The notes under the pieces: model-generated
What the model was told of the DNA's origin: nothing
What the model saw: only the letters and a program-made list of their open reading frames with translations
Databases searched by the model: none
Program-made: the position numbers and the translations under genes
In this document: positions 3,748-49,320 of the stretch, piece after piece
Numbering within the stretch: position 1 is the first letter of the stretch
How the letters are laid out: every line of letters starts with the position of its first letter
Origin: a virus
Taxonomy: Duplodnaviria; Caudoviricetes
IMG/VR virus record: IMGVR_UViG_2974613666_000001
Span: 1 to 64,000 of that record
Reading direction: 5' to 3' (one strand)
Length of the DNA: 64,000 nt

Positions 3748-4971
3748 ATGCAATTAGTAGAGAAGCACGTAATTAGGAAAAACCATATATTCTGGAAAGA
3801 GTGTGACCACTTATCTTTGCAGTCTAAGCACCTCTATAATTCTGCTACCTACATACAACGTCACTACTTCTTTGAAACAGGTAAGTATTATAACTCGATT
3901 GATGTTTACCATCAAACCAAAGATTTAGAAGCCTACAGATACCTACCTACAAAAGTTAGTAAACAGATTGTCCGTAGGGTTTCAGAAGCTTGGAAAGGTT
4001 GGCAGGCTGCTTTAAGAGATTGGTTTAAGCATCCTGAGAAGTATTTAAGTAAGCCGAAAATGCCTGGGTATAAGCACAAGGAACGTGGTAGAAACGTTGT
4101 AGTATACCCTATAGATTCTCTATCAAAACCAGCTTTAACCAAAGGTACTATCAAACTTTCTCAGACTAATATTGAGTTTCCCACTAAGGCTAGAAACATA
4201 AATCAAGCACGTATCGTTCCGAAGCTCGATCACTACGTTATTGAGGTTGTCTATACAGTAGATGATCCTGTATCTAGTACAGGTAAATACTCTGCTGGAA
4301 TAGACCTTGGCTTAAGCAATTTAATGGCTATAACATCAAATCATCCCGGTATAAGACCGCTTTTGATTAATGGTAGACCTTTAAAAAGTATTAACCAATT
4401 TTTCAATAAAAGAGTGGCTAAAGCACAATCCTTAGAAGCCTCGAAACAAGTTAAAGCACTTAATGGTAAGCGTGACAGAAGAATTGATAATTATCTCCAT
4501 ACTGCCAGTCGTAGAGTCGTTGATTGGTGTCAGTTAAATGAGATAAGTCAGTTGATAATCGGCAATAATGCAGGCTGGAAACAAGATATCAACATTGGTA
4601 AGAATAATAATCAATCCTTCACCAAAATTCCTCATGCTAAATTGATTCATCTTTTAACTTACAAAGCGGAGTTATCCGGTATTGAGGTTATAGTTACTGA
4701 GGAAAGCTATACTTCTAAGGCAAGTGCTTTAGATAACGATCCCTTACCAACTTATAAAGCTAAATCAGAATTTAAGCCTGTGTTTAGTGGTAAGAGGGTT
4801 AAAAGAAGGTTGTATAAAACTTCAGCAGGTCAGATCATTAACGCTGATACTAATGGAAGTTTGAATATAGCTAGAAAAGTAATTCCTAACTTTATGGAAG
4901 GAATAGAGGGATTGCCGTTTATCCCTGTAGTTTTAGGACTTTGGACTAAGATTACAAACTTAAATCACTAG
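3748..4971 (+). CDS. tnpB: IS607-associated TnpB RNA-guided nuclease
   Basis: MQLVEKHVI start, GIDLG (RuvC-I), EESYTSKAS, INADTNGS; directly follows the tnpA remnant. Confidence 0.92.
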   Translation: MQLVEKHVIRKNHIFWKECDHLSLQSKHLYNSATYIQRHYFFETGKYYNSIDVYHQTKDLEAYRYLPTKVSKQIVRRVSEAWKGWQAALRDWFKHPEKYLSKPKMPGYKHKERGRNVVVYPIDSLSKPALTKGTIKLSQTNIEFPTKARNINQARIVPKLDHYVIEVVYTVDDPVSSTGKYSAGIDLGLSNLMAITSNHPGIRPLLINGRPLKSINQFFNKRVAKAQSLEASKQVKALNGKRDRRIDNYLHTASRRVVDWCQLNEISQLIIGNNAGWKQDINIGKNNNQSFTKIPHAKLIHLLTYKAELSGIEVIVTEESYTSKASALDNDPLPTYKAKSEFKPVFSGKRVKRRLYKTSAGQIINADTNGSLNIARKVIPNFMEGIEGLPFIPVVLGLWTKITNLNH

Positions 4972-6589
4972 ATTTATTTAGTTTTTTATGAACGGTTTGA
5001 TCAAGTGCCTTTGGATTACTGCATTTAACCAAAATATCCTTGCGTACGTCACCACCGTCAATCATATCTACCTCTACATCTTCACTACCCACGTCAGGAA
5101 TAGTTGATAAATCCCAGCCACCCTCATACTTATCAGCCACACTCACACCAAAAGCTAATGCCATAACCGTATCATCATTTTTACCATTGGCAGCTTCCAA
5201 TTTCTTACCTTGCCTACGGAAGTTTAATAATTCATCCACAATAGGACAATCTTCTGGGAAGTCTAATTCTTGTTTCTCCAACTTCAACAACAGTCCAGAA
5301 ACCAGGACAGGTTTAGTGTCACCACCAGTTCTAATTGCTGTAATATCTAAACCTGGATACTCCTGAGTCAATTTCTCTAAATAAAGTTGACCTACTCCAC
5401 CCGTGGTTTCAATTCCCACAACAGCAGGTTTATACTTATCGATTAACTCGCCTACCTGATATAGATGATACTCTGATGTCTGTTGACGCTTCCTATATAA
5501 TGCAACAACTGATAATTTTTTACCAACCCTTTTCAATACAACAGCTACAAAATAATCAGATCCAATAGTGGAAGTATCAATACCAATAAAATAATCAGCC
5601 CCAATATCACGCGCATCTTCCCAACAACCGATCGCAGCTTCCCGCACTACACTACTCAGGAATATCGAAACAGCACTATCAACAAACTCAAGATTATATT
5701 CCCGCAGCACAGTTTCCCTATCTGTACCATCTTGCTTCATCCTGTATTCTAGATAATCGTCGCGCTGTGAATATACAGGGTGACAAGTCCAATGCAGAAT
5801 TAATTTAACCGTGCCAATTTCATCTACCCACCAGTAAACACCGGGAATATCTTTATACAGTTCACCGTTGGCGACAGCTTTGCATAGCTGCTCAACATCT
5901 TTATCCCCGTTGTTTTCAGTCAACTTTGACCAGTACCAACCTGATTTAGCAGAAGGTGTGGATACTATCAACTTAGTGATACTGTCCCCAGCCAACGCAC
6001 CTGATGGTGACGATGCACTAAAAATCTGGTCGATACCTTCAACGAATGCAGCTTCATCAAATAGGAAGTCTAAAACGGAATCATACGATCTAGAACCTTC
6101 CTTACTTGAGTTCTTAAAGTAAATTTCCCCCAGACCCTTTAGCTTGAGGTGTCCTACGTTATCATTACTTGGTTGAACGTACTCTTTCAGACCTTCAAGC
6201 ATTTGTCTAGCACGACGGGATAATGCACCAGCATCATCGGCATTTCTCATAAACGCCATACTTGAGTAAGCCGGATTTAGGCAAGCGCGATGTAAGAATT
6301 TGGATGCGATCGCTTGTGTCGTTCCCAACTGTCTGGATTTTACGATAACCACGTTATTGTACTGATCCATCAGGCGACTGAGTAGAACCTGATAGTCATA
6401 GGGGATGAATTGTTTCATCTCACCACCAGACCTGATAGTACAGAGATTTACAAAATTATCCCAATTACTAGGTACTGGTTTGGTGATGATGCTGCGGTTG
6501 TCTATGTCCTTCTTGAACTGTTCTAGTTGTTGAAAGACATCACTAATTTCAAACCTAAAATCTGACCCGTAGTTACTCAGTTTTCCCAT
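4952..6589 (-). CDS. terL: Terminase large subunit
   Basis: KSRQLGTT Walker A, FLFDEAAF Walker B, IVSTP, nuclease GIDTS and NDDTVMA; ATG 6589 preferred over TTG 6607. Confidence 0.92.
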   Translation of the reverse strand: MGKLSNYGSDFRFEISDVFQQLEQFKKDIDNRSIITKPVPSNWDNFVNLCTIRSGGEMKQFIPYDYQVLLSRLMDQYNNVVIVKSRQLGTTQAIASKFLHRACLNPAYSSMAFMRNADDAGALSRRARQMLEGLKEYVQPSNDNVGHLKLKGLGEIYFKNSSKEGSRSYDSVLDFLFDEAAFVEGIDQIFSASSPSGALAGDSITKLIVSTPSAKSGWYWSKLTENNGDKDVEQLCKAVANGELYKDIPGVYWWVDEIGTVKLILHWTCHPVYSQRDDYLEYRMKQDGTDRETVLREYNLEFVDSAVSIFLSSVVREAAIGCWEDARDIGADYFIGIDTSTIGSDYFVAVVLKRVGKKLSVVALYRKRQQTSEYHLYQVGELIDKYKPAVVGIETTGGVGQLYLEKLTQEYPGLDITAIRTGGDTKPVLVSGLLLKLEKQELDFPEDCPIVDELLNFRRQGKKLEAANGKNDDTVMALAFGVSVADKYEGGWDLSTIPDVGSEDVEVDMIDGGDVRKDILVKCSNPKALDQTVHKKLNKSSDLSL

Positions 6590-39999: not shown

Positions 40000-40329
40000 T
40001 TAAACAGGTGTAGGATTTGAATCATCACTTTCTGGTTCTTCGTAATCTAAAGGGCAATCACCAGGAGTAACGTATTCAGCAGGGGATAATCCTAGCAGGG
40101 TCATAGCTTCTGACAATAAGCCGATCAAATACAAGCGACGTGCAGGACGGCTCACCACTAAATCAGTCCAGTAATTACCATCAGAATCAGGCACTCTAGA
40201 AATAGTTACATGAAGGTCGTCAGAAGGTAGACCGCCAAAGTCTCCGGTAGTGGACGCTAATAAGTCTTCATCTGTTTGAATAGTCTCACTGAAGTCATTA
40301 CCTTGATCTGGTTTAGGTTGGTCAGCCAT
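40000..40329 (-). CDS. Acidic hypothetical protein
   Basis: 109-aa ORF heading the minus-strand operon. Confidence 0.6.
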   Translation of the reverse strand: MADQPKPDQGNDFSETIQTDEDLLASTTGDFGGLPSDDLHVTISRVPDSDGNYWTDLVVSRPARRLYLIGLLSEAMTLLGLSPAEYVTPGDCPLDYEEPESDDSNPTPV

Positions 40330-40837
40330 ATCACTTATTTTGATTACTAGCTCAATTATATAAACCCAACCACATATATATGTATGACCATTTAGAAGCG
40401 ATTTGGTTCTTAAGTATGACTTGATATCCCATCAACGCCCTGACTGTGATTTAGCAAGATTACTTTTAAGTTTGTTCGATCAGCTTCTGCTATCTCAGAG
40501 CCTGAACCGTATTATTAGCAATAGCTGAGGGTGTTCCAACATTCGAGGTAAGAATAGACTGATATGAATGTTAGAACACCCTTTTAACCCTTACTATATA
40601 TACGTTCTAGCCTTACGATCTTTTTAACTAGATCCAATAATTTTTACAATGAGTGCTATTCTATCTCACTAATTAATATAATTTTTGCTATCTATTATCA
40701 AGCTACTTAATTGATTATTGTTAGGGGCGATCGCTTTAGAGACGTTAGGGTACGCTGTTTACTCCTTATTGGGGCAAAAAAGTGGTGGGTGGTGACGGGA
40801 AACAGTAAATTACTAAAAATTTGCAGCACAAATGTCT

Positions 40838-41027
40838 GGACTACAAGAGCTAAAAATAAGCTTAAGGGTCGTAGCCCTTGGGTATATTGATTTGAAAAGC
40901 TTACCTGACCCTCTCAGCCAACGTCAGGCGATCGTCTGAGGGGAAGCTTTTGTTTTTGTCATCGAGTTTTTCTGATTTCTCAGAGTTGCGTCAATACAGG
41001 TAGTCTGCGGGAATTGTCCCGGTTTTT
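40838..41027 (+). ncRNA. Candidate structured RNA with possible pseudoknot (5' end uncertain)
   Basis: Nested helices with plus-strand G.U pairs and a terminal hairpin followed by T5. Confidence 0.4.
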
Positions 41028-41029
41028 AA

Positions 41030-41753
41030 AATTTTGAGAATAGCTTTATACTTATCCGAAGTCTTCAGTAGTTCTTTTTTCACGCATCCCGGTCACAGGA
41101 GTTGGTACTCTGAAAGTTTCACCCTTTTATCCTAGTGGGTAACTTACTCTTACTCCTACCATCAGCAAGGTTCTTGAGTCGCCTGGTGAAATTCTTAGCT
41201 GGTGTCTTCTTAGCTCACTTATTGCGTCGTATTCCGCCTTCCGCTTACTTGACTTTATATACGAGAGTTCAAGTCCTCCACAGTTCGCTACACTGCTTTG
41301 TTTTGACCATTAACCAGAACTTCGTTTTATTACGGAGTTACGTTTCCGCATCAGCTTACAACCTTTTTCCTTTGGGCTAGTTTTACCGGGAACACCGCTA
41401 CCCCTCAGCTACTAAGAACTGCTATATAGTAACTTGACGCTACCCTAGCATATACTGCTTACCCTTCCAAGTTACACAGTCTTAGCACTTACTCATTCCC
41501 TCAAGGCTCCTATACTACCCATTCCTTGCAGAACTTCATACGTATCAGAGAGGTACTTGCCTGAGCATCTTTCTGGTTGCTCCGAGGTTATGCTCGGATT
41601 AGAATCTTGTTGACCTCTTTTATGAGGCTTTGCCTTACTCCCTACTCCCTGCCCTTCTAAAATAAATTAGATAGGTTGTGTTGTCGTGGTGGTTAGCATT
41701 CGCAAGATTAGCATCTGGTCACACTCGGCTTTACGCCGCAGGTATCAGATGCC
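41030..41753 (-). ncRNA. Large structured ncRNA, GOLLD-like
   Basis: No credible ORF; own sigma70 promoter; 5' stem GGCAUCUG/CAGAUGCU; many helices; 3' end GGAUGC..GAAAAAAGAA..GAAGAC..GCUAUUCUCA resembles the GOLLD 3' end as recalled. Confidence 0.6.
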
Positions 41754-41756
41754 TAA

Positions 41757-41786
41757 ATAATAGCACAGGATTTTGATATGAGTCAA
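41757..41786 (-). promoter_or_regulatory. sigma70-type promoter for the large ncRNA
   Basis: TTGACT-N18-TATTAT with an extended -10 TG. Confidence 0.7.
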
Positions 41787-41929
41787 ATGTTTTTTGTAAA
41801 TATTGCTTTGTCAGTTTTGTTTCGATCCTTATTAGGGATCGTGCCTTTGTTATAACTCCTATTTAGAAAATCAGGTAATACTGTTTCTGTTTCAATCCTT
41901 TATAGGGTTATAGCATTTTTATAGTTTAT

Positions 41930-43280
41930 TAAGTTTATAGTGGTCTAAAGCCCTACCATTTAAGATATACCATTTATTTTACAATTAATGTTGCTATTTT
42001 GTAAAATATCTAGTATACTTGAAGCAACAACATTAGCATCAGGTCGAAATGCTTAATCTTACTTACACCTACAAATTACAACCAACAGCGAAACAGATAG
42101 AAACCATAGAGCATAATCTCAACGTGTGTAAGTCTGTTTGGAACTATGCTCTATACGTCAGAAAGCTCTGGTACAATAGCCGTAGTTGTAAGATTAACCA
42201 ATGCTCTCTATTTCAGGAATATGTTGTTGAACCTTTTGAGTATCCTAACTACCATACTAAGTCTTCTGAATTAACACTTGCTAAAAAGACTAATCCTTTT
42301 CTTAAATCTGGTAATGCCCAAGCCATGCAGCAGACATTACGTAAGTTGGATAGAGCATTCAATGATATGAAGTCTAGAGGAATGGGGTTTCCTAGATACA
42401 AGAAAAAGATGAAGTCTTTTAATTTGTTAGGAGGTATATCAGTTCAAGGAAATATACTCAAGATGCCTCTACTTAAAGAGGTTAAGTTTAGAAAGTCAAG
42501 AGAAATTCCAGAAGGGTTCAAGGCTAAGCAAGTACAAATCATTAAAAAGGCAAGCGGTTACTACGCTAATTTAATGATAGAGCTTGATGTTAATGTTGCT
42601 AGTCCTACACCTCATGGTCATGCCTTGGGGATTGATGTAGGTATTCAAAACATGATAGCAACTTCCGACGGGTTGACGCTAAAAAGACCTAAGTTCCTAG
42701 ATAAAGCACTGCGTAAGATTAAATTACTACAAAGGAAGCTTAAAAAGAAAACTATTGGGTCTAATAACTGGAGAAGTCTGCAACATCGGATTGCTTTGTT
42801 ACATGAGGCTGTAGCAAATAGGCGTAAAGATTACCATTTTAAATTAGCTCACCAGTTGTGCGGAAATTCGGGAATGATATTTGTTGAAGATATTAACTTT
42901 GTAGCTTGGAGCAAAGGTTCATTTTCAAAACAGTCTCTAGATATGTGTCTAGGTCAATTCTTCAACATCCTTGAGTATGTCTGCTCTCAGACTGACACCT
43001 ACTTCAGTAAAGTAGATAAAAACTACACTTCTCAGATTTGCCCTAATTGTGGAACTCACACAGGTAAAAAAGACCTAAGTGTGAGGGTGCATAAATGTTC
43101 TGAATGTGGGTATGAGCGAGATAGAGACATAGCTGCTGCTGAAGTAATAAGAAATAGGGGTTTAGATAATATTGCGGTAGGAACTGCCGTGATTAAACAG
43201 TCCAGTAATGGCGTTCTAGCGGGGACTTCGGTCTAGTTAAGAGTCTAAATGGGAATCCCTTATCTTTAAGGGAAGTTCAA
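41930..43280 (+). mobile_element. IS200/IS605-family tnpB-only element
   Basis: Left end ...ggtctaaagccc after TTTAT; right end GAAT-hairpin-TCAA at 43253-43280; promoter TTGCTA-N17-TATACT (41991-42019). Confidence 0.8.
42049..43236 (+). CDS. tnpB: TnpB RNA-guided nuclease (intact RuvC D/E/D, Zn ribbon)
   Basis: TYTYKLQPT HTH, GIDVG, FVEDI, CPNC..CSEC, DRDIAAA. Confidence 0.93.
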   Translation: MLNLTYTYKLQPTAKQIETIEHNLNVCKSVWNYALYVRKLWYNSRSCKINQCSLFQEYVVEPFEYPNYHTKSSELTLAKKTNPFLKSGNAQAMQQTLRKLDRAFNDMKSRGMGFPRYKKKMKSFNLLGGISVQGNILKMPLLKEVKFRKSREIPEGFKAKQVQIIKKASGYYANLMIELDVNVASPTPHGHALGIDVGIQNMIATSDGLTLKRPKFLDKALRKIKLLQRKLKKKTIGSNNWRSLQHRIALLHEAVANRRKDYHFKLAHQLCGNSGMIFVEDINFVAWSKGSFSKQSLDMCLGQFFNILEYVCSQTDTYFSKVDKNYTSQICPNCGTHTGKKDLSVRVHKCSECGYERDRDIAAAEVIRNRGLDNIAVGTAVIKQSSNGVLAGTSV

Positions 43281-43380
43281 CCTAATGAGCTTCTTGCTTC
43301 TCCTTTCAGTTTCAATCACTGATAAGGGTTATAGAGTTTTTTCTGCCAAAACATATAAATTTCCGAAGATAAAATATAGT

Positions 43381-43895
43381 CTAGGTCAAATAATTGGCAC
43401 AAAGCTCAAAAGAAAGTGGCAAAATTGCATGAACATATTGCTAATACTAGAAAGGACTTTCATTGGAAAATAGCACATCAACTTTGTGATACTGCTCAAA
43501 CTATCTTTGTAGAAGATTTGAATTTAGTGGGATTGTCCAGGGGAATACTTGGCAAGCATTGTCTAGATGCTGGATGGGGACAATTCTTTGAAATTCTGGA
43601 GCAGTGTTGTTTTAAGCGTGGTGTATTTTTCCAGAAAGTAGATAGCCGAAAGACTTCTCAGATTTGCCCTAATTGTAGAATAGAAACGGGTAAAAAAGAG
43701 TTGTCACAGCGTGTTCATGTTTGTGAACATTGTGGCTATACAACTGATAGAGATGTTGCAGCCGCTCAAGTAGTTCTGATTAGAGGACTTGCAGCCGTCG
43801 GGCAGACGGTAAATATGCTTGCTGAGGGTAAATTCGTTGGAATCCCTGTGACGCAAGAATCCCCCCGGCTAGAAGCCGGGGGGAGTGTCAAGTGA
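43381..43895 (+). pseudogene. tnpB: 5'-truncated tnpB with its right end
   Basis: SNNWHKAQKKVAKLHEH...FVEDLN...CPNC..CEHC..DRDVAAA; right end gaatccccccggctagaagccgggggagtgtcaa. Confidence 0.88.
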
Positions 43896-43932: not shown

Positions 43933-44367
43933 ATGCGACCGCCAATAATGATCGCCTCGCAGCGCAATCTATCCCCATTGTTAGGTTACACCGATGTCAG
44001 GTGCGATCGTGCATCTGTACTTGGTAATCCTTTTGAACTAACCCATGAGTCACAACGTCCACAAGTTTGCGCTGCTTACAAGGATTATTTTGGACGTAAT
44101 CTGGTAGCTTCTATTTTTACACCTGGTGAACCTGTGAAAGTTGGTAGTTATGGTTTGCAGATTGCTAGAACTTTTAAAAACCCAACGCCACAGCAATTTG
44201 TAGCCGAATTAAACAGGCTTTATGATTTAGCTTTATCAGGTGTGAAACTTAGGTTGCTTTGCTGGTGTAAGCCTCTACCCTGTCATGTTGATACCATTCA
44301 GGAATATTTACTTTTTTCCATTGGCTATAAGGTAGAAATAGCACCATGCCAGATCAAACTTTTTTAG
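43933..44367 (+). CDS. DUF4326 family protein
   Basis: RASVLGNPF...LLCWCKPLPCHVD. Confidence 0.85.
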   Translation: MRPPIMIASQRNLSPLLGYTDVRCDRASVLGNPFELTHESQRPQVCAAYKDYFGRNLVASIFTPGEPVKVGSYGLQIARTFKNPTPQQFVAELNRLYDLALSGVKLRLLCWCKPLPCHVDTIQEYLLFSIGYKVEIAPCQIKLF

Positions 44368-44379
44368 ATAGATAAAATA

Positions 44380-44598
44380 ATGGCATCAATAAATAGACTG
44401 AAACCTGGACAAACAGTTTACATCCCAACTAGAGGAGGGTCAGTAATAAAATATGACAGCTACATTGAAATCCACATTCAAGAAGTCAATGTTGAATCTG
44501 GTTATGTGATCGCTAAATCTGGACACATACCAGGAACCAGAAAATATAACTTATCTCAGATTAAGCAGTGGAGAATAAGTAAACCTAAATCGAAGTAA
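44380..44598 (+). CDS. Small hypothetical protein
   Basis: 72 aa followed by a terminator hairpin at ~44615-44648. Confidence 0.6.
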   Translation: MASINRLKPGQTVYIPTRGGSVIKYDSYIEIHIQEVNVESGYVIAKSGHIPGTRKYNLSQIKQWRISKPKSK

Positions 44599-44837
44599 CT
44601 TGATAATAAGCAAGATAACCTGATAGCAGCAAACTATCAGGTTATTTTATTTTTTTACCTTAAAAAACTTCACAACACCAAAAAACTCACCCAACACACC
44701 TTTCATCATCTCCTGCCTTTCCCTATGAGAGACGATCGCCTTGGAACCTGCTTTAATCCTGTTGCTGATATTATCCTTGTTCTGCTCTTCCATAACTAAT
44801 GCATGGTAAAATATTCTTACTATATCAGTTAAAACAA

Positions 44838-45266
44838 ATGGAACGATCGCCGCAACCGGGACAGATTTGGAAGCATTTCAAAGGTAATGATTATGAGGTG
44901 CTGCTAATAACTGGTATGCCTCTCATCGGCACAAATAACCCTGATTTAGATATTTTAAGGTCTTTCTGGTCTAAAGATATTAAGCACTCAGAAACTCAGG
45001 AGACACTAACCTTGATAACTGAGTTATCTAGTGACAACGTGACTACCACACACCTGATGAATTATCAGCATGAGCTACCTAAAGTTATTAAAGAACCTCA
45101 TGTGATTTACCGCAGGTGTGATCGCGCCTATCCAGATATTTGGGCGCGACCTATGGATAATTTTTTGGATATCTTGACTGTTGAGCAATTGGCAGCAGTA
45201 CAGGTTGGTAAACACAATTTGGGGTTTGGTGAAGGTTTGGATTATAGGTTCACCAGAATAAGCTAG
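44838..45266 (+). CDS. DUF1653 family protein
   Basis: PGQIWKHFKGNDYEVL...HSETQE...VIYR...IWARPMDNF. Confidence 0.8.
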   Translation: MERSPQPGQIWKHFKGNDYEVLLITGMPLIGTNNPDLDILRSFWSKDIKHSETQETLTLITELSSDNVTTTHLMNYQHELPKVIKEPHVIYRRCDRAYPDIWARPMDNFLDILTVEQLAAVQVGKHNLGFGEGLDYRFTRIS

Positions 45267-45300
45267 TACAATTAAATAAGTAAAACAAAGGTAAAACAGA

Positions 45301-46779
45301 GTGCCAAAACGCAGCAGCAACATCAAAATTCTATATCACAAAGTCCGTCCAACCTTAGACTGTCCTGATGGTATTTATGCAGCTTATACAGCCAAGCGTA
45401 AATTCCCCACAGCACAACTAATCGGTTGTATTTATCAACAAGAACCACCAAAGGTTAACGATGGTGATAAGTTAATCATCGTAGATTTTAGTTTCCCCAT
45501 AGAAGTAATCAACGGCTGGCGCGATCGCTCCTGCGAAGTAATTCTTATCGATCACCACAAAACCCTAGTGGATAAAGTGCGTGAGTATTGCACCAAAGTA
45601 TTAATGCGCTCAATGGGTGTTTACTTACAATCAACACGTAATCAGCAATCAGCTAGTAGCGAACTAAAACAAGGTGCGTCAGCTTTATTGATTGATTCTG
45701 TTTTTAGTGCCGTCCGGGAAAAGCAAGAAGTAAAAGGTCAACCAGTATTCCAAGACTTCCTTACCTTTTTACGTTTCACAGGTTTATTCACTCAAATAAA
45801 GCAGCAGCCTGTCTGGTGTGATCGTTCCACGAGTATTAATGAGGTTTTAGATTTAGACTTCAGCAGCGATCGTCCTGAAGATTATACACATGATCAGTGG
45901 GAAGTTTTTAAAGAGTTCCACACCTTAATCATTACCCAGATTGAGAAGTTTATGGATGTGAAAGGAGTAGCCAGCCTATTCAGATACTTCTCAGACGGTG
46001 AGTTAAGTTTTGATATTAAAAAGTGTGGTGCTGTGTTGACGTGGGAGTATTTCTTTCCCGATGAACCAGTGCCAGCGCTGTTACTGTTTGCACAGGATAG
46101 GGATTTGTGGGTGTGGAGATTACCCCATTCTAAGCAGATAAATGAGGCTTTAGCTCACGTTGGGCGCACTCAGGCGATTTACGATGAACTGTTACCCCTT
46201 ACTTTAGAACAGTTGACTAATCGCTTTATTGATTTAGGTAATATACTGGTCAACCCTAAGTTAGAAAAAGCCAAGGAACTAGCAGCAGGGGCAGTGTGGA
46301 GAGATATTCTAGGCTATAGAGTGTTAGTGGTTGAATTGCAGTCTCTGGATGCCTACTACTACAATGATGTGATGGAGTACCTGTACACTCACAATCCTGA
46401 CTCACCTTTTGTAGCCACTTATATTAAGTTGCCTGATGATGCTGGGTACAAGTTTAGTTTTAGATCACCTCAAATATATGATGGCTTCGATGTTAGTTCT
46501 ATTGCTGCAAAGTTCGGTGGTGGGGGGCATTTTTTTGCTGCTGGTGCTAAATTACGCAAACTACCTTGGGAGACTACTGAGACTATCGAGACTGCCGAGA
46601 CTAACTCAATAGAGTATTTGGTTAAGTCTTTTAATGGTACTGGTGCAGAAGTCACAATGGGCAATTTCCCAAATCACTACATGGCGGAAAGATTTATCCA
46701 AGAGGTGAAAATTTACCCGACTTACTGCGATCGCCCCGTGTGGTGCGACGTGGTTGTGGATGGTGAACCAGTTGTCTAG
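45301..46779 (+). CDS. DHH/DHHA1 family phosphoesterase with large insertion
   Basis: DCPDG, IVDFSF, IDHH, QDRDLW, FSFRS, FGGGGH..AAG. Confidence 0.88.
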   Translation: MPKRSSNIKILYHKVRPTLDCPDGIYAAYTAKRKFPTAQLIGCIYQQEPPKVNDGDKLIIVDFSFPIEVINGWRDRSCEVILIDHHKTLVDKVREYCTKVLMRSMGVYLQSTRNQQSASSELKQGASALLIDSVFSAVREKQEVKGQPVFQDFLTFLRFTGLFTQIKQQPVWCDRSTSINEVLDLDFSSDRPEDYTHDQWEVFKEFHTLIITQIEKFMDVKGVASLFRYFSDGELSFDIKKCGAVLTWEYFFPDEPVPALLLFAQDRDLWVWRLPHSKQINEALAHVGRTQAIYDELLPLTLEQLTNRFIDLGNILVNPKLEKAKELAAGAVWRDILGYRVLVVELQSLDAYYYNDVMEYLYTHNPDSPFVATYIKLPDDAGYKFSFRSPQIYDGFDVSSIAAKFGGGGHFFAAGAKLRKLPWETTETIETAETNSIEYLVKSFNGTGAEVTMGNFPNHYMAERFIQEVKIYPTYCDRPVWCDVVVDGEPVV

Positions 46780-48012: not shown

Positions 48013-48066
48013 ATATAATAATAAAGTGTAAATACTATGTTATTATATATTAAGGAGGTAAGAAAA

Positions 48067-49320
48067 ATGTTTGGATGTCAACAAAATCTAATTAATCCTG
48101 ACAAAGAAATAAAAGCGATACTTGAATTTCTTTGCAGTGAGTCCCAAAAACTAACTAATTGCGGGATCTATTATTCCCGGCAATTGTTTTTCAAGACTGG
48201 CAAAATCCCTAGTCGTGCTGATTTGCATAAAGAACTAGGTACAAGGAATTTAAACCCGCACTATCAGGCTTTTTACTCTGATACAGCACAACAAATCCTA
48301 ACTACCGTAGCTGAGTCGTTTAAGTCGTTTTTTGGATCACTCAAAGCCGTTAAAGCTGGTAAAGTAACCCAAAAACCTAAACTGCCAAAATACCGTAAAG
48401 GTGGTATGGCATTAGTGACTTATACAGGTCGTTCCGTAAAGCTTGAAAACGAATTACTGCGTTTCCCCCTTGGTTCTAAGGTTAGGGCGTGGTTTGGTAT
48501 TGACGCTTTTTATCTACCAATGCCATCAAACCTTGATCACAAATCAATCAGAGAATATCGGATATTGCCTAGAAATGGCTGCTTCTATCTTGAATTAGTC
48601 TATAAAACTGAACTAATTCAGGCAGAGGTTAATCCTAGCAATGCTTTGATGATTGATCATGGCATGAATAACTGGCTAACCTGTGTTAGCAATGTTGGCA
48701 CGAGTTTTATTGTTGATGGCAAGCATCTAAAATCTATCAATCAAGGTTATAACAAGCGTGTTGCGTCTTTGACGGAAGGAAAGGCTAACGGATATTGGAC
48801 TAAACGTTTAGCCAATATTACTGAAAAGCGTAACCGTACTATGCGAGATGCTATCAACAAAGCAGCCAGAAAAGTTGTTAGGCATTGCTTGGATAGCAAG
48901 ATTGGTACAATTATTTTTGGTTGGAATGTTGGGCAAAAAGACGGCGCTAATATGGGAGCGAAGACTAACCAAAAGTTTGTCCAGATTCCTACAGGTCGCC
49001 TTAAAGAAAGAATTAAACAACTGTGTGAGCAGTATGGCCTTCAGTTTGTAGAAACTGAAGAGTCATATACTTCCAAGGCTTCGTTTATTGATAGAGATTT
49101 TCTACCTACGTTCGGCGAAAAACCTGAAGGGTGGAAAGAATCTGGTAAGCGAGTTAAGCGTGGTTTGTACCGTACTGCTCAAGGCTATTTGATTAATGCA
49201 GACTGTAATGGCGCTGCAAATATGGGTAGAAAAAACGTAGCGGTGATGCTTGGACTAAATCTAAGCGGAATCAGTAGAGGCGATTTGTCAGCGCCTTTAA
49301 GACTTAAATTATGGTCTTAA
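48067..49320 (+). CDS. tnpB: TnpB RNA-guided nuclease
   Basis: MFGCQQNL start (ORF track gives 48037), MIDHG, EESYTSKAS, INADCNGA. Confidence 0.92.
   Translation: MFGCQQNLINPDKEIKAILEFLCSESQKLTNCGIYYSRQLFFKTGKIPSRADLHKELGTRNLNPHYQAFYSDTAQQILTTVAESFKSFFGSLKAVKAGKVTQKPKLPKYRKGGMALVTYTGRSVKLENELLRFPLGSKVRAWFGIDAFYLPMPSNLDHKSIREYRILPRNGCFYLELVYKTELIQAEVNPSNALMIDHGMNNWLTCVSNVGTSFIVDGKHLKSINQGYNKRVASLTEGKANGYWTKRLANITEKRNRTMRDAINKAARKVVRHCLDSKIGTIIFGWNVGQKDGANMGAKTNQKFVQIPTGRLKERIKQLCEQYGLQFVETEESYTSKASFIDRDFLPTFGEKPEGWKESGKRVKRGLYRTAQGYLINADCNGAANMGRKNVAVMLGLNLSGISRGDLSAPLRLKLWS

Follow-up and report, generated by a model that had tools for sequence, protein, structure and literature searches.

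A candidate gene for a ~0.9-kb structured non-coding RNA in siphoviruses of filamentous cyanobacteria

We analysed a 64,000-nt stretch of viral DNA (hereafter the window), which is the first 64 kb of the complete 145.4-kb virus record IMGVR_UViG_2974613666_000001. The closest public relative of this phage is Nodularia phage vB_NspS-kac65v162 (kac65v162; genus Ravarandavirus) of the Baltic Sea. Positions 40853–41750 of the window, read on the minus strand, appear to constitute an independent gene whose product is a structured non-coding RNA about 0.9 kb in length, which would represent an uncatalogued family in siphoviruses of filamentous cyanobacteria. We give this reading a probability of about 60%. 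A preliminary description, made from the sequence alone, had offered two views of the region, a divergent GOLLD RNA or a new large RNA class. The second is the one supported, by a promoter-to-terminator unit, a discrete RNA contig, the non-coding character of the locus and compensatory changes in three lineages.

The segment 40330–42048 is the longest part of the 145.4-kb genome without an open reading frame (ORF) of at least 75 aa, in agreement with the gene-free region first noted. Next in size among the gene-free gaps of the phage is one of 1.1 kb outside the window, at G000 73563–74655. The promoter described as pointing into the region is likewise present: a sigma-70-type promoter at 41757–41786 on the minus strand has a − 35 element TTGACT, an 18-nt spacer and a TG-extended − 10 element TATTAT. 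It is kept as TTGACT-18-TAATAT in kac65v162 and as TTGACA-17-TATATT in a more distant uncultured phage, designated G002. At the other end, a terminator-like hairpin is found at 40879–40864 on the minus strand, with a U-run at 40856–40852. Conservation in the locus alignment with kac65v162 runs beyond 41030, to about 40853. This conservation, the hairpin and an RNA contig covering 41746–40875 place the 3' end of the RNA near 40853–40875. The gene as delimited by promoter and terminator is therefore about 0.9 kb long and does not end at 41030 after ~720 nt, as had been proposed. The helices quoted in the preliminary description read correctly on the minus strand only.

To look for transcripts, contigs of public sequencing runs were aligned to 40200–42200. 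Twenty public runs contain part of the 1.7-kb stretch, runs X16–X20 small shares of it; two of the twenty are metatranscriptomes, both from one study. In the marine metatranscriptome run X10, a single 872-nt contig at a depth of 42 spans exactly 41746–40875 with 0 differences, corresponding to the interval from the predicted promoter to the predicted terminator. No RNA contig of this run lies over 40249–40874 or 41747–42039, unlike the DNA runs, which cover the 40249–40874 flank continuously. A second RNA contig (697 nt, depth 30.8) carries the kac65v162-type allele, and thus both alleles were present in the same RNA sample.

The protein-coding potential of the locus was evaluated by comparing the two alleles. 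They differ by indels of 21, 28, 1, 2, 1, 2, 1, 1 and 1 nt, which break the reading frames. The GenBank record of kac65v162 (MK605244) lists gp050, gp051 and gp052 at this place (L002:4018-4709) as small ORFs on the strand opposite to the RNA. Their equivalents in the window allele are interrupted by stop codons, and these "hypothetical proteins" are probably gene-calling artefacts. On the minus strand, just one frame stays open in both alleles. It comprises 30 aa and has a pN/pS of 0.87, and its differences are spread 8/8/7 by codon position, showing no codon-position bias. An 81-aa ORF on the plus strand had no homologue among 5.8 billion protein clusters. A decayed TnpB or other gene was rejected as the origin of the region, because no phage protein matched it in the translated comparison (tblastn). 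By these sequence comparisons the locus is non-coding; it holds no conserved open frame and does not behave as a protein-coding gene.

The RNA was found in three lineages. Two are represented by the Baltic alleles, that of the window and that of kac65v162; the third is a distant homologue, detected by a motif-cluster search, that is carried by two uncultured phages, G002 (3300042503_001836) and G003, both from IMG/VR sample 3300042503. The window type is identical across eight contigs from several samples. The kac65v162 type comprises three variants about 1.5–1.8% apart over the locus and flanks, with few of the differing positions inside the RNA, and the polymorphism within each allele is too low to be informative. 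Between the two Baltic alleles, the RNA is 74–75% identical, the flanks are 97–99% identical and the phages are 97.6% identical overall, so that the RNA is one of about 15 divergent mosaic islands. The divergence starts at the 3' end of the RNA. The promoter, the terminator and many blocks of 12–20 nt are kept at 75% identity, and partly in G002 as well. The G002 homologue, which measures about 0.96 kb and has a promoter of its own, aligns clearly across the 3' third; elsewhere it has scattered invariant motifs such as UAGGAUAAAA and AAGUACC. The DHH protein of these uncultured phages is only 45% identical.

Conservation of structure was assessed by consensus folding. The RNAalifold consensus of the two Baltic alleles had an energy of − 153 kcal/mol, against − 110.6 ± 5.7 in column shuffles, and contained 22 pairs in which both bases had changed, against 13 ± 3.8. 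In a less biased test, the structure was predicted from one allele alone and scored on the other, in both directions. Double changes numbered 15 and 16 (8.7 and 8.3 expected; p 0.02 and 0.006), and broken pairs numbered 77 and 51 (96 and 67.5 expected; p < 0.0005 and 0.002). The same test on the reverse complement gave a weaker signal. When all three lineages were compared over the 3' third, the consensus reached − 40.8 against − 17.1 ± 3.9 (z − 6.1), and 18 covarying pairs were obtained against 7.3 ± 2.8, a value reached by 0 of 150 shuffles. The reverse complement of the 3' third gave z − 4.1 and p 0.013.

The individual elements, all on the minus strand, are described from the 5' end. A 5' hairpin at 41708–41750 has a closing stem that reads GCAUCUG/CAGAUGC, GUCUG/CAGAC or UUGGU/ACCAA in the three lineages, and is followed by the conserved motif GCUA(A/G)U. 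Within 41610–41692, the window allele has two insertions, of 21 nt and 28 nt, that kac65v162 lacks. A part of the insertions, GGGCAGGGAGUAGGGAGUAAGG (41654–41633, minus strand), is almost identical to intergenic tandem heptamer repeats (GGGAGTA)n of Nostocaceae (L115–L117), which suggests that the variable 5' part of the window-type allele has acquired host-like repeat sequence. The hairpin UCCGAG-CAUAAC-CUCGGA (41581–41598) becomes CCCAAG...CUUGGG in kac65v162, with two compensatory pairs and an invariant loop. A stem with a nested GNRA-capped hairpin at 41510–41542 (GCAA here and GUAA in kac65v162) shows three compensatory pairs. The central domain at 41198–41408, for which we built the covariance model R1, consists of helices with 4 double and 5 single compensated changes. 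Between these helices lie long invariant A-rich single-stranded blocks, AUAAAACGAAGUU, UCAAAACAAAGCAG, CGUAUAUAAAGUCAAG and AGCUAAGAAGACACCAGC, which are 12–18 nt long and identical in both Baltic alleles.

In the 3' portion, the hairpin ACCC-ACUAGGAUAAAA-GGGU (41121–41140) has two compensatory pairs relative to kac65v162, and its loop motif is the invariant UAGGAUAAAA of all three lineages. A branched helix at 41058–41120, whose outer stem is UUUCAG/CUGAAG, UUCUG/CAGAG or UCAGAU/AUCUGG depending on the lineage, encloses an inner hairpin UCCU...GGGA. The capped hairpin CGGGA-CAAU-UCCCG (41021–41008) varies only in the loop, and the capped hairpin UCUGA-GAAA-UCAGA (40984–40971) has GGGA-GCAA-UCCC at the matching place in G002. 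In the two GNRA-capped hairpins, the cap is kept and the stem is changed. The 3' element (40853–40951) comprises three invariant AAGCUU palindromes, two crossing helices and the terminator hairpin. One helix, CCUGAC/GUCAGG, is changed to CCUGAU/AUCAGG in kac65v162 and to CGUGAC/GUCACG in G002, and the second covarying helix, CCUCAG/CUGAG(A)GG, crosses it. In the folding model, these would form either a pseudoknot or two alternative states. The AAGCUU palindromes permit alternative folds within 3–4 kcal/mol of each other; as a sign of assembly of the RNA by itself into symmetric multimers, as in GOLLD and ROOL, these sequences are only a hint.

Of the five helices named in the preliminary description, CCGAG/CUCGG (41598–41581) is clearly kept by compensatory change and GAGCA/UGCUC is loosely kept, but CGGC-GUAAA-GCCG gains an A-C mismatch in the other allele, and GCG-GAAA-CGU and UAGGAGU/ACUCCUG are not kept. 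The well-supported helices are others. The pentamer GUAAG is enriched in the RNA (8 copies against 1.4 expected, about 3 of them position-conserved), and nothing is drawn from this count.

We compared both alleles with known RNA families using Rfam 15 (4227 models), in gathering-score mode and with permissive filters at E ≤ 10. No match was obtained in the whole 64-kb window at the gathering score. The permissive search returned no GOLLD match in 40300–42300 or in the kac65v162 allele, and yielded only noise of 15–20 bits (E 1.6–9; snoRNA, miRNA and CRISPR-DR models) that was not common to both alleles. ROOL (RF03087), OLE (RF01071), HEARO (RF02033) and raiA were rejected because neither allele matched their covariance models, and the same holds for group I and group II introns, RNase P, tmRNA and 6S RNA. 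ARAGORN found no tRNA gene in the window or in the whole 145.4-kb genome, so the earlier remark that no tRNA is visible nearby applies to the entire phage. A search of the full-text literature found no description of this RNA.

The likeness of one motif to the GOLLD 3' terminus has no support in these results, as no Rfam model matches even at E ≤ 10. Like GOLLD (RF01998; Weinberg et al. 2009), the RNA is large (~0.8–0.9 kb), phage-carried, non-coding and of unknown function, and has many helices plus conserved unpaired blocks. In the comparison with the features of that family, a phage-borne non-coding RNA of ~800 nt was found here (~0.9 kb with no conserved frame), and a covariance-model match and tRNA adjacency were not. 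GOLLD, whose structure has been determined by cryo-electron microscopy (cryo-EM; PMC12286853), also differs in having Lactobacillales hosts and far more members, whereas the present RNA has a cyanobacterial host and no accompanying tRNA genes. ROOL is similarly a large ornate RNA of unknown function, often located in prophages; however, it is about 580 nt long, occurs in rumen and Firmicutes contexts, and shares neither a model match nor, among the motifs tested, a common motif with the present RNA.

Further homologues were sought by several routes. Exact-pattern scans of IMG/VR gave no further homologue, the 17-mer matches (L003–L006) being chance; the same was true of scans of JGI metagenomes, in which all four matches were chance, and of blastn against GenBank phages. 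Among 389 Nostocaceae genomes, blastn yielded nothing but matches to the heptamer repeats and a single 23-mer located in a broken symporter gene. In this match, 41182–41204 of the window is identical over 23 nt to L118:1501-1523 of a 4.8-Mb Nostocaceae genome, antisense to a sodium:dicarboxylate symporter fragment. About 0.07 such matches are expected over the search, and the sequence is not kept in the other allele; the match is probably due to chance. The R1 model, applied to related phages and 151 Nostocaceae genomes, returned only noise of 17–22 bits. No homologue was found in Aphanizomenon phage CL131. Routes through the neighbouring 806-aa and 109-aa proteins, the RNA ligase, the 149-aa protein of G002 and the spurious 81-aa ORF led to no further homologue, and cluster members contributed just the two Baltic alleles. 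In L016, a distant relative that comes from a lake metagenome, a 1.3-kb gene-free gap lies at 5077–6367 near the homologue of the 109-aa gene. Two ~540-nt units with many GGGTGAAAAA-type iterons make up this gap; it has no homology to the RNA and may be an origin or a regulatory array.

Downstream, the RNA heads a minus-strand unit consisting of a 530-nt conserved spacer and four genes of unknown function, which encode proteins of 109, 54, 116 and 806 aa. The non-coding spacer (40330–40852) is about 99% identical among Baltic phages and is partly kept even in G002 (GUCCAGACA..UGCUGC.AAUUUUUA). It contains a 17-nt inverted repeat (40528–40582), and further contigs of DNA runs also match that piece. 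The only promoter candidate between the terminator and the 109-aa gene, TTGGAA-17-AATAAT, is not strong.

The upstream side of the RNA gene is variable. Two degenerate CRISPR-like repeats, 70 nt apart, lie outside the RNA at 41814–41845 and 41884–41920 on the minus strand, in the same orientation as the RNA, and end in GGAUCGAAAC and GGAUUGAAAC. A third copy is located at 43304–43341, beyond a TnpB element. The three copies are 79% alike, and the Rfam CRISPR-DR match to them is below threshold. A search of 301 Nostocaceae genomes for 26-nt matches to the repeat, allowing up to 3 mismatches, found none. Both repeat ends resemble those of the type I-C array of G002, with the internal hairpin lost. 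From their sequences, the three repeats look like a decayed array hit by an insertion sequence (IS) element. The 1.4-kb element between copies 2 and 3 carries a TnpB gene (42049–43236, plus strand; OrfB_IS605 and Cas12f1-like TNB domains in Pfam), the product of which is 70–83% identical to TnpB of Pleurocapsa, Waterburya, Crocosphaera and other cyanobacteria. The phage genome contains six TnpB-type (Cas12f1-like TNB) matches, five of them full length, at 3748–4971, 42049–43236, 43416–43895 and 48037–49320 of the window and at G000 66696 and 106013. The RNA is single-copy, with no copy at the other five TnpB loci.

In G002, a 118.5-kb uncultured cyanophage-like virus, the RNA promoter comes immediately after the last, degenerate unit of an array of eight 37-nt repeats ending in GGATTGAAAC. 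The array stands behind cas3 and a divergent cas5d-cas8c-cas7 set. Genes for Cas5d, Csd1/Cas8c, Cas7 and a divergent Cas3 (HD and helicase) are located at L159:16803-19963 (minus), L160:19-2097 and L160:3357-3888, and G002 thus looks like a carrier of a full type I-C interference set; no cas1, cas2 or cas4 was seen in the stretch examined. In kac65v162, TnpB is absent from the RNA locus, there are no repeats, and an RNA ligase gene lies 80 nt from the RNA promoter. Two further contigs (L146 and L147) have the RNA without repeats, TnpB, cas genes or the ligase alongside, and no cas genes were found in the Baltic phages. The other side of this hotspot (43933–46779 of the window) carries conserved genes for DUF4326, DUF1653 and a 492-aa DHH/DHHA1 phosphoesterase, and a DHH protein is encoded in the same relative position in G002. 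Judged by gene order, the RNA gene is the fixed, stable border of a cargo hotspot. Since its neighbours change while the RNA stays, the RNA does not depend on CRISPR, TnpB or the ligase. The CRISPR repeats (a mini-array in the preliminary description) and TnpB next to the RNA are real, but they are not conserved partners.

According to the proposed mechanism, host RNA polymerase would start at the near-consensus sigma-70 promoter (41786–41757) and stop at the hairpin and U-run near 40853. As the promoter is of the sigma-70 type, transcription would be carried out by unmodified host polymerase from the start of infection. Covarying helices plus invariant single-stranded blocks are typical of RNAs with a tertiary fold, and their presence here suggests that the RNA adopts such a fold and acts as a molecule rather than as an antisense transcript. 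An antisense action on the phage's own genes was rejected, as no complementarity extends beyond 15 nt, and none beyond chance was found to 389 host-family genomes. A sponge for Shine-Dalgarno-like or GGA motifs was rejected for want of enrichment, and an origin of replication was rejected because there is no turning point in cumulative GC skew and there are no iterons. We tentatively propose that the folded RNA has a function in trans, most likely as a scaffold or decoy for proteins in host takeover or in defence and counter-defence, and that its 3' alternative pairings may additionally govern how much transcription continues into the operon downstream (109-aa to 806-aa genes). It is likewise conceivable, by analogy with GOLLD and ROOL, that the RNA is the founding example of a new class of large, tertiary-folded "ornate" RNAs in phages of filamentous cyanobacteria, working as an RNA machine through self-assembly or catalysis. 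Such an RNA would be produced as infection begins and would be retained through the turnover of the adjacent defence cargo.

Several observations weigh against the reading of the locus as a stand-alone RNA gene. Nothing points directly to a function of the RNA. Low-depth contigs of run X13, which leave parts of the stretch uncovered, cross the terminator and the 530-nt spacer, so that some read-through occurs, and the depth of the RNA contig (42) resembles that of neighbouring phage contigs (33 and 14). Assembled contigs from one study cannot give strand, exact ends or abundance. Because of the single study, these limits of contigs and the crossing of the terminator in X13, expression of the RNA is graded as moderately supported. 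The preliminary description had named covariation analysis as a check, and compensatory pairs exceed shuffles in both the two-lineage and the three-lineage comparison. The folding energy of the single sequence is no better than that of dinucleotide shuffles (z − 0.8), so that the case for structure rests on the comparison of lineages and not on helix density. Local windows reach only z − 1.7 to − 3.9 with little strand preference, and the column shuffles overstate significance since they do not preserve dinucleotides. With three lineages, and effectively two over most of the length, an R-scape-type covariation statistic is not possible. The central part of G002 aligns poorly, and the R1 model misses it.

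Among the other explanations, the one we take most seriously, although we consider it unlikely, is that the RNA serves chiefly as a leader or attenuator, long and structured, at the 5' end of the downstream operon, in which the 3' pairings choose between termination and read-through. The weakness of any promoter between the terminator and the 109-aa gene, the closely spaced alternative folds of the AAGCUU palindromes, the compensatory changes in both crossing 3' helices, the X13 contigs over the terminator and spacer, and the retention in G002 of the spacer just 3' of the RNA would all fit such a leader. However, the X10 RNA contig ends at 40875 with none over 40249–40874, and attenuation does not require conserved structure over 0.8 kb upstream, nor invariant single-stranded blocks within it; a role in trans is compatible with attenuation anyway. 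The lambda pR' 6S transcript, which terminates at tR', offers a precedent, such phage leaders being 70–200 nt long and without extended conserved structure. The present locus resembles it in having a strong, constitutive-type promoter, a terminated non-coding transcript upstream of an operon and possible alternative 3' pairings, and differs in that no antiterminator protein has been identified here and the RNA is longer, with conserved structure. Somewhat less likely still is a functionless transcribed mosaic spacer or the remnant of a decayed gene, with structure arising by chance. Phage genomes do hold intermodule junk, and the ordinary single-sequence folding, the small number of lineages and the position in a recombination hotspot among ~15 divergent islands are in line with this view. 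It would not account for a promoter, a terminator and 12–20-nt blocks kept at 75% identity and partly in G002, for double compensatory changes above the unbiased nulls, or for a helix with three different paired sequences, and the translated comparison showed no trace of a gene.

The remaining explanations are improbable. A CRISPR- or TnpB-linked RNA, such as a tracr- or omega-like scaffold, a CreTA-type toxin RNA under the control of Cascade or an RNA anti-CRISPR, would explain the same-orientation repeats directly upstream in the window and in G002, the full type I-C set of G002 and the adjoining TnpB in the window. Against this, kac65v162, L146 and L147 keep the RNA without repeats, TnpB or cas genes, the other five TnpB loci lack a copy, and the RNA has no repeat-like units. 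A TnpB omega RNA or Cas12 tracrRNA was rejected specifically, since the RNA is encoded on the other strand, upstream of TnpB rather than at its 3' end, and is present without TnpB in those three relatives, and CreTA-like control was rejected because spacer matches to the promoter or the RNA do not exceed 10 nt. The likeness to CreTA modules and RNA anti-CRISPRs, which are small RNAs encoded next to CRISPR loci, lies in the position of the RNA beside CRISPR repeats, some of them degenerate, and in the strong promoter in front of it; the present RNA differs in being about 10 times larger, in occurring without repeats or cas genes and in having no spacer-promoter complementarity. A highly divergent member of GOLLD, ROOL, OLE or HEARO is even less probable, despite the similar size, phage location and many GNRA-capped helices: Rfam can miss very distant members, yet there is no match even at E ≤ 10 in either allele, there are no tRNA genes, and the host phylum is different. 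Equally remote is a gene for small proteins of the gp050–gp052 type or an origin-priming R-loop transcript. The three GenBank ORFs, on the opposite strand, and the purine-rich transcript (59% A + G) could be cited in favour, but the stop codons in the window allele, the frame-breaking indels and the lack of codon-position bias contradict the former, and the missing GC-skew turning point and iterons contradict the latter.

To our knowledge, very few bacterial or phage RNAs longer than 500 nt have been described, and GOLLD, ROOL and OLE each proved structurally remarkable. For the RNA gene proposed here, a cultured phage-host pair exists in Nodularia spumigena KAC65 and the kac65-type phages, and two natural alleles 25% apart co-occur and are both found in environmental RNA. 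This makes genetics, probing and cryo-EM directly feasible, unlike for most orphan large RNAs. The analysis also corrects public annotation, as three "hypothetical proteins" of kac65v162 are probably spurious. Finally, the RNA gene marks a cargo hotspot in bloom-controlling cyanophages, at which CRISPR-Cas, IS elements and RNA-repair genes are exchanged.

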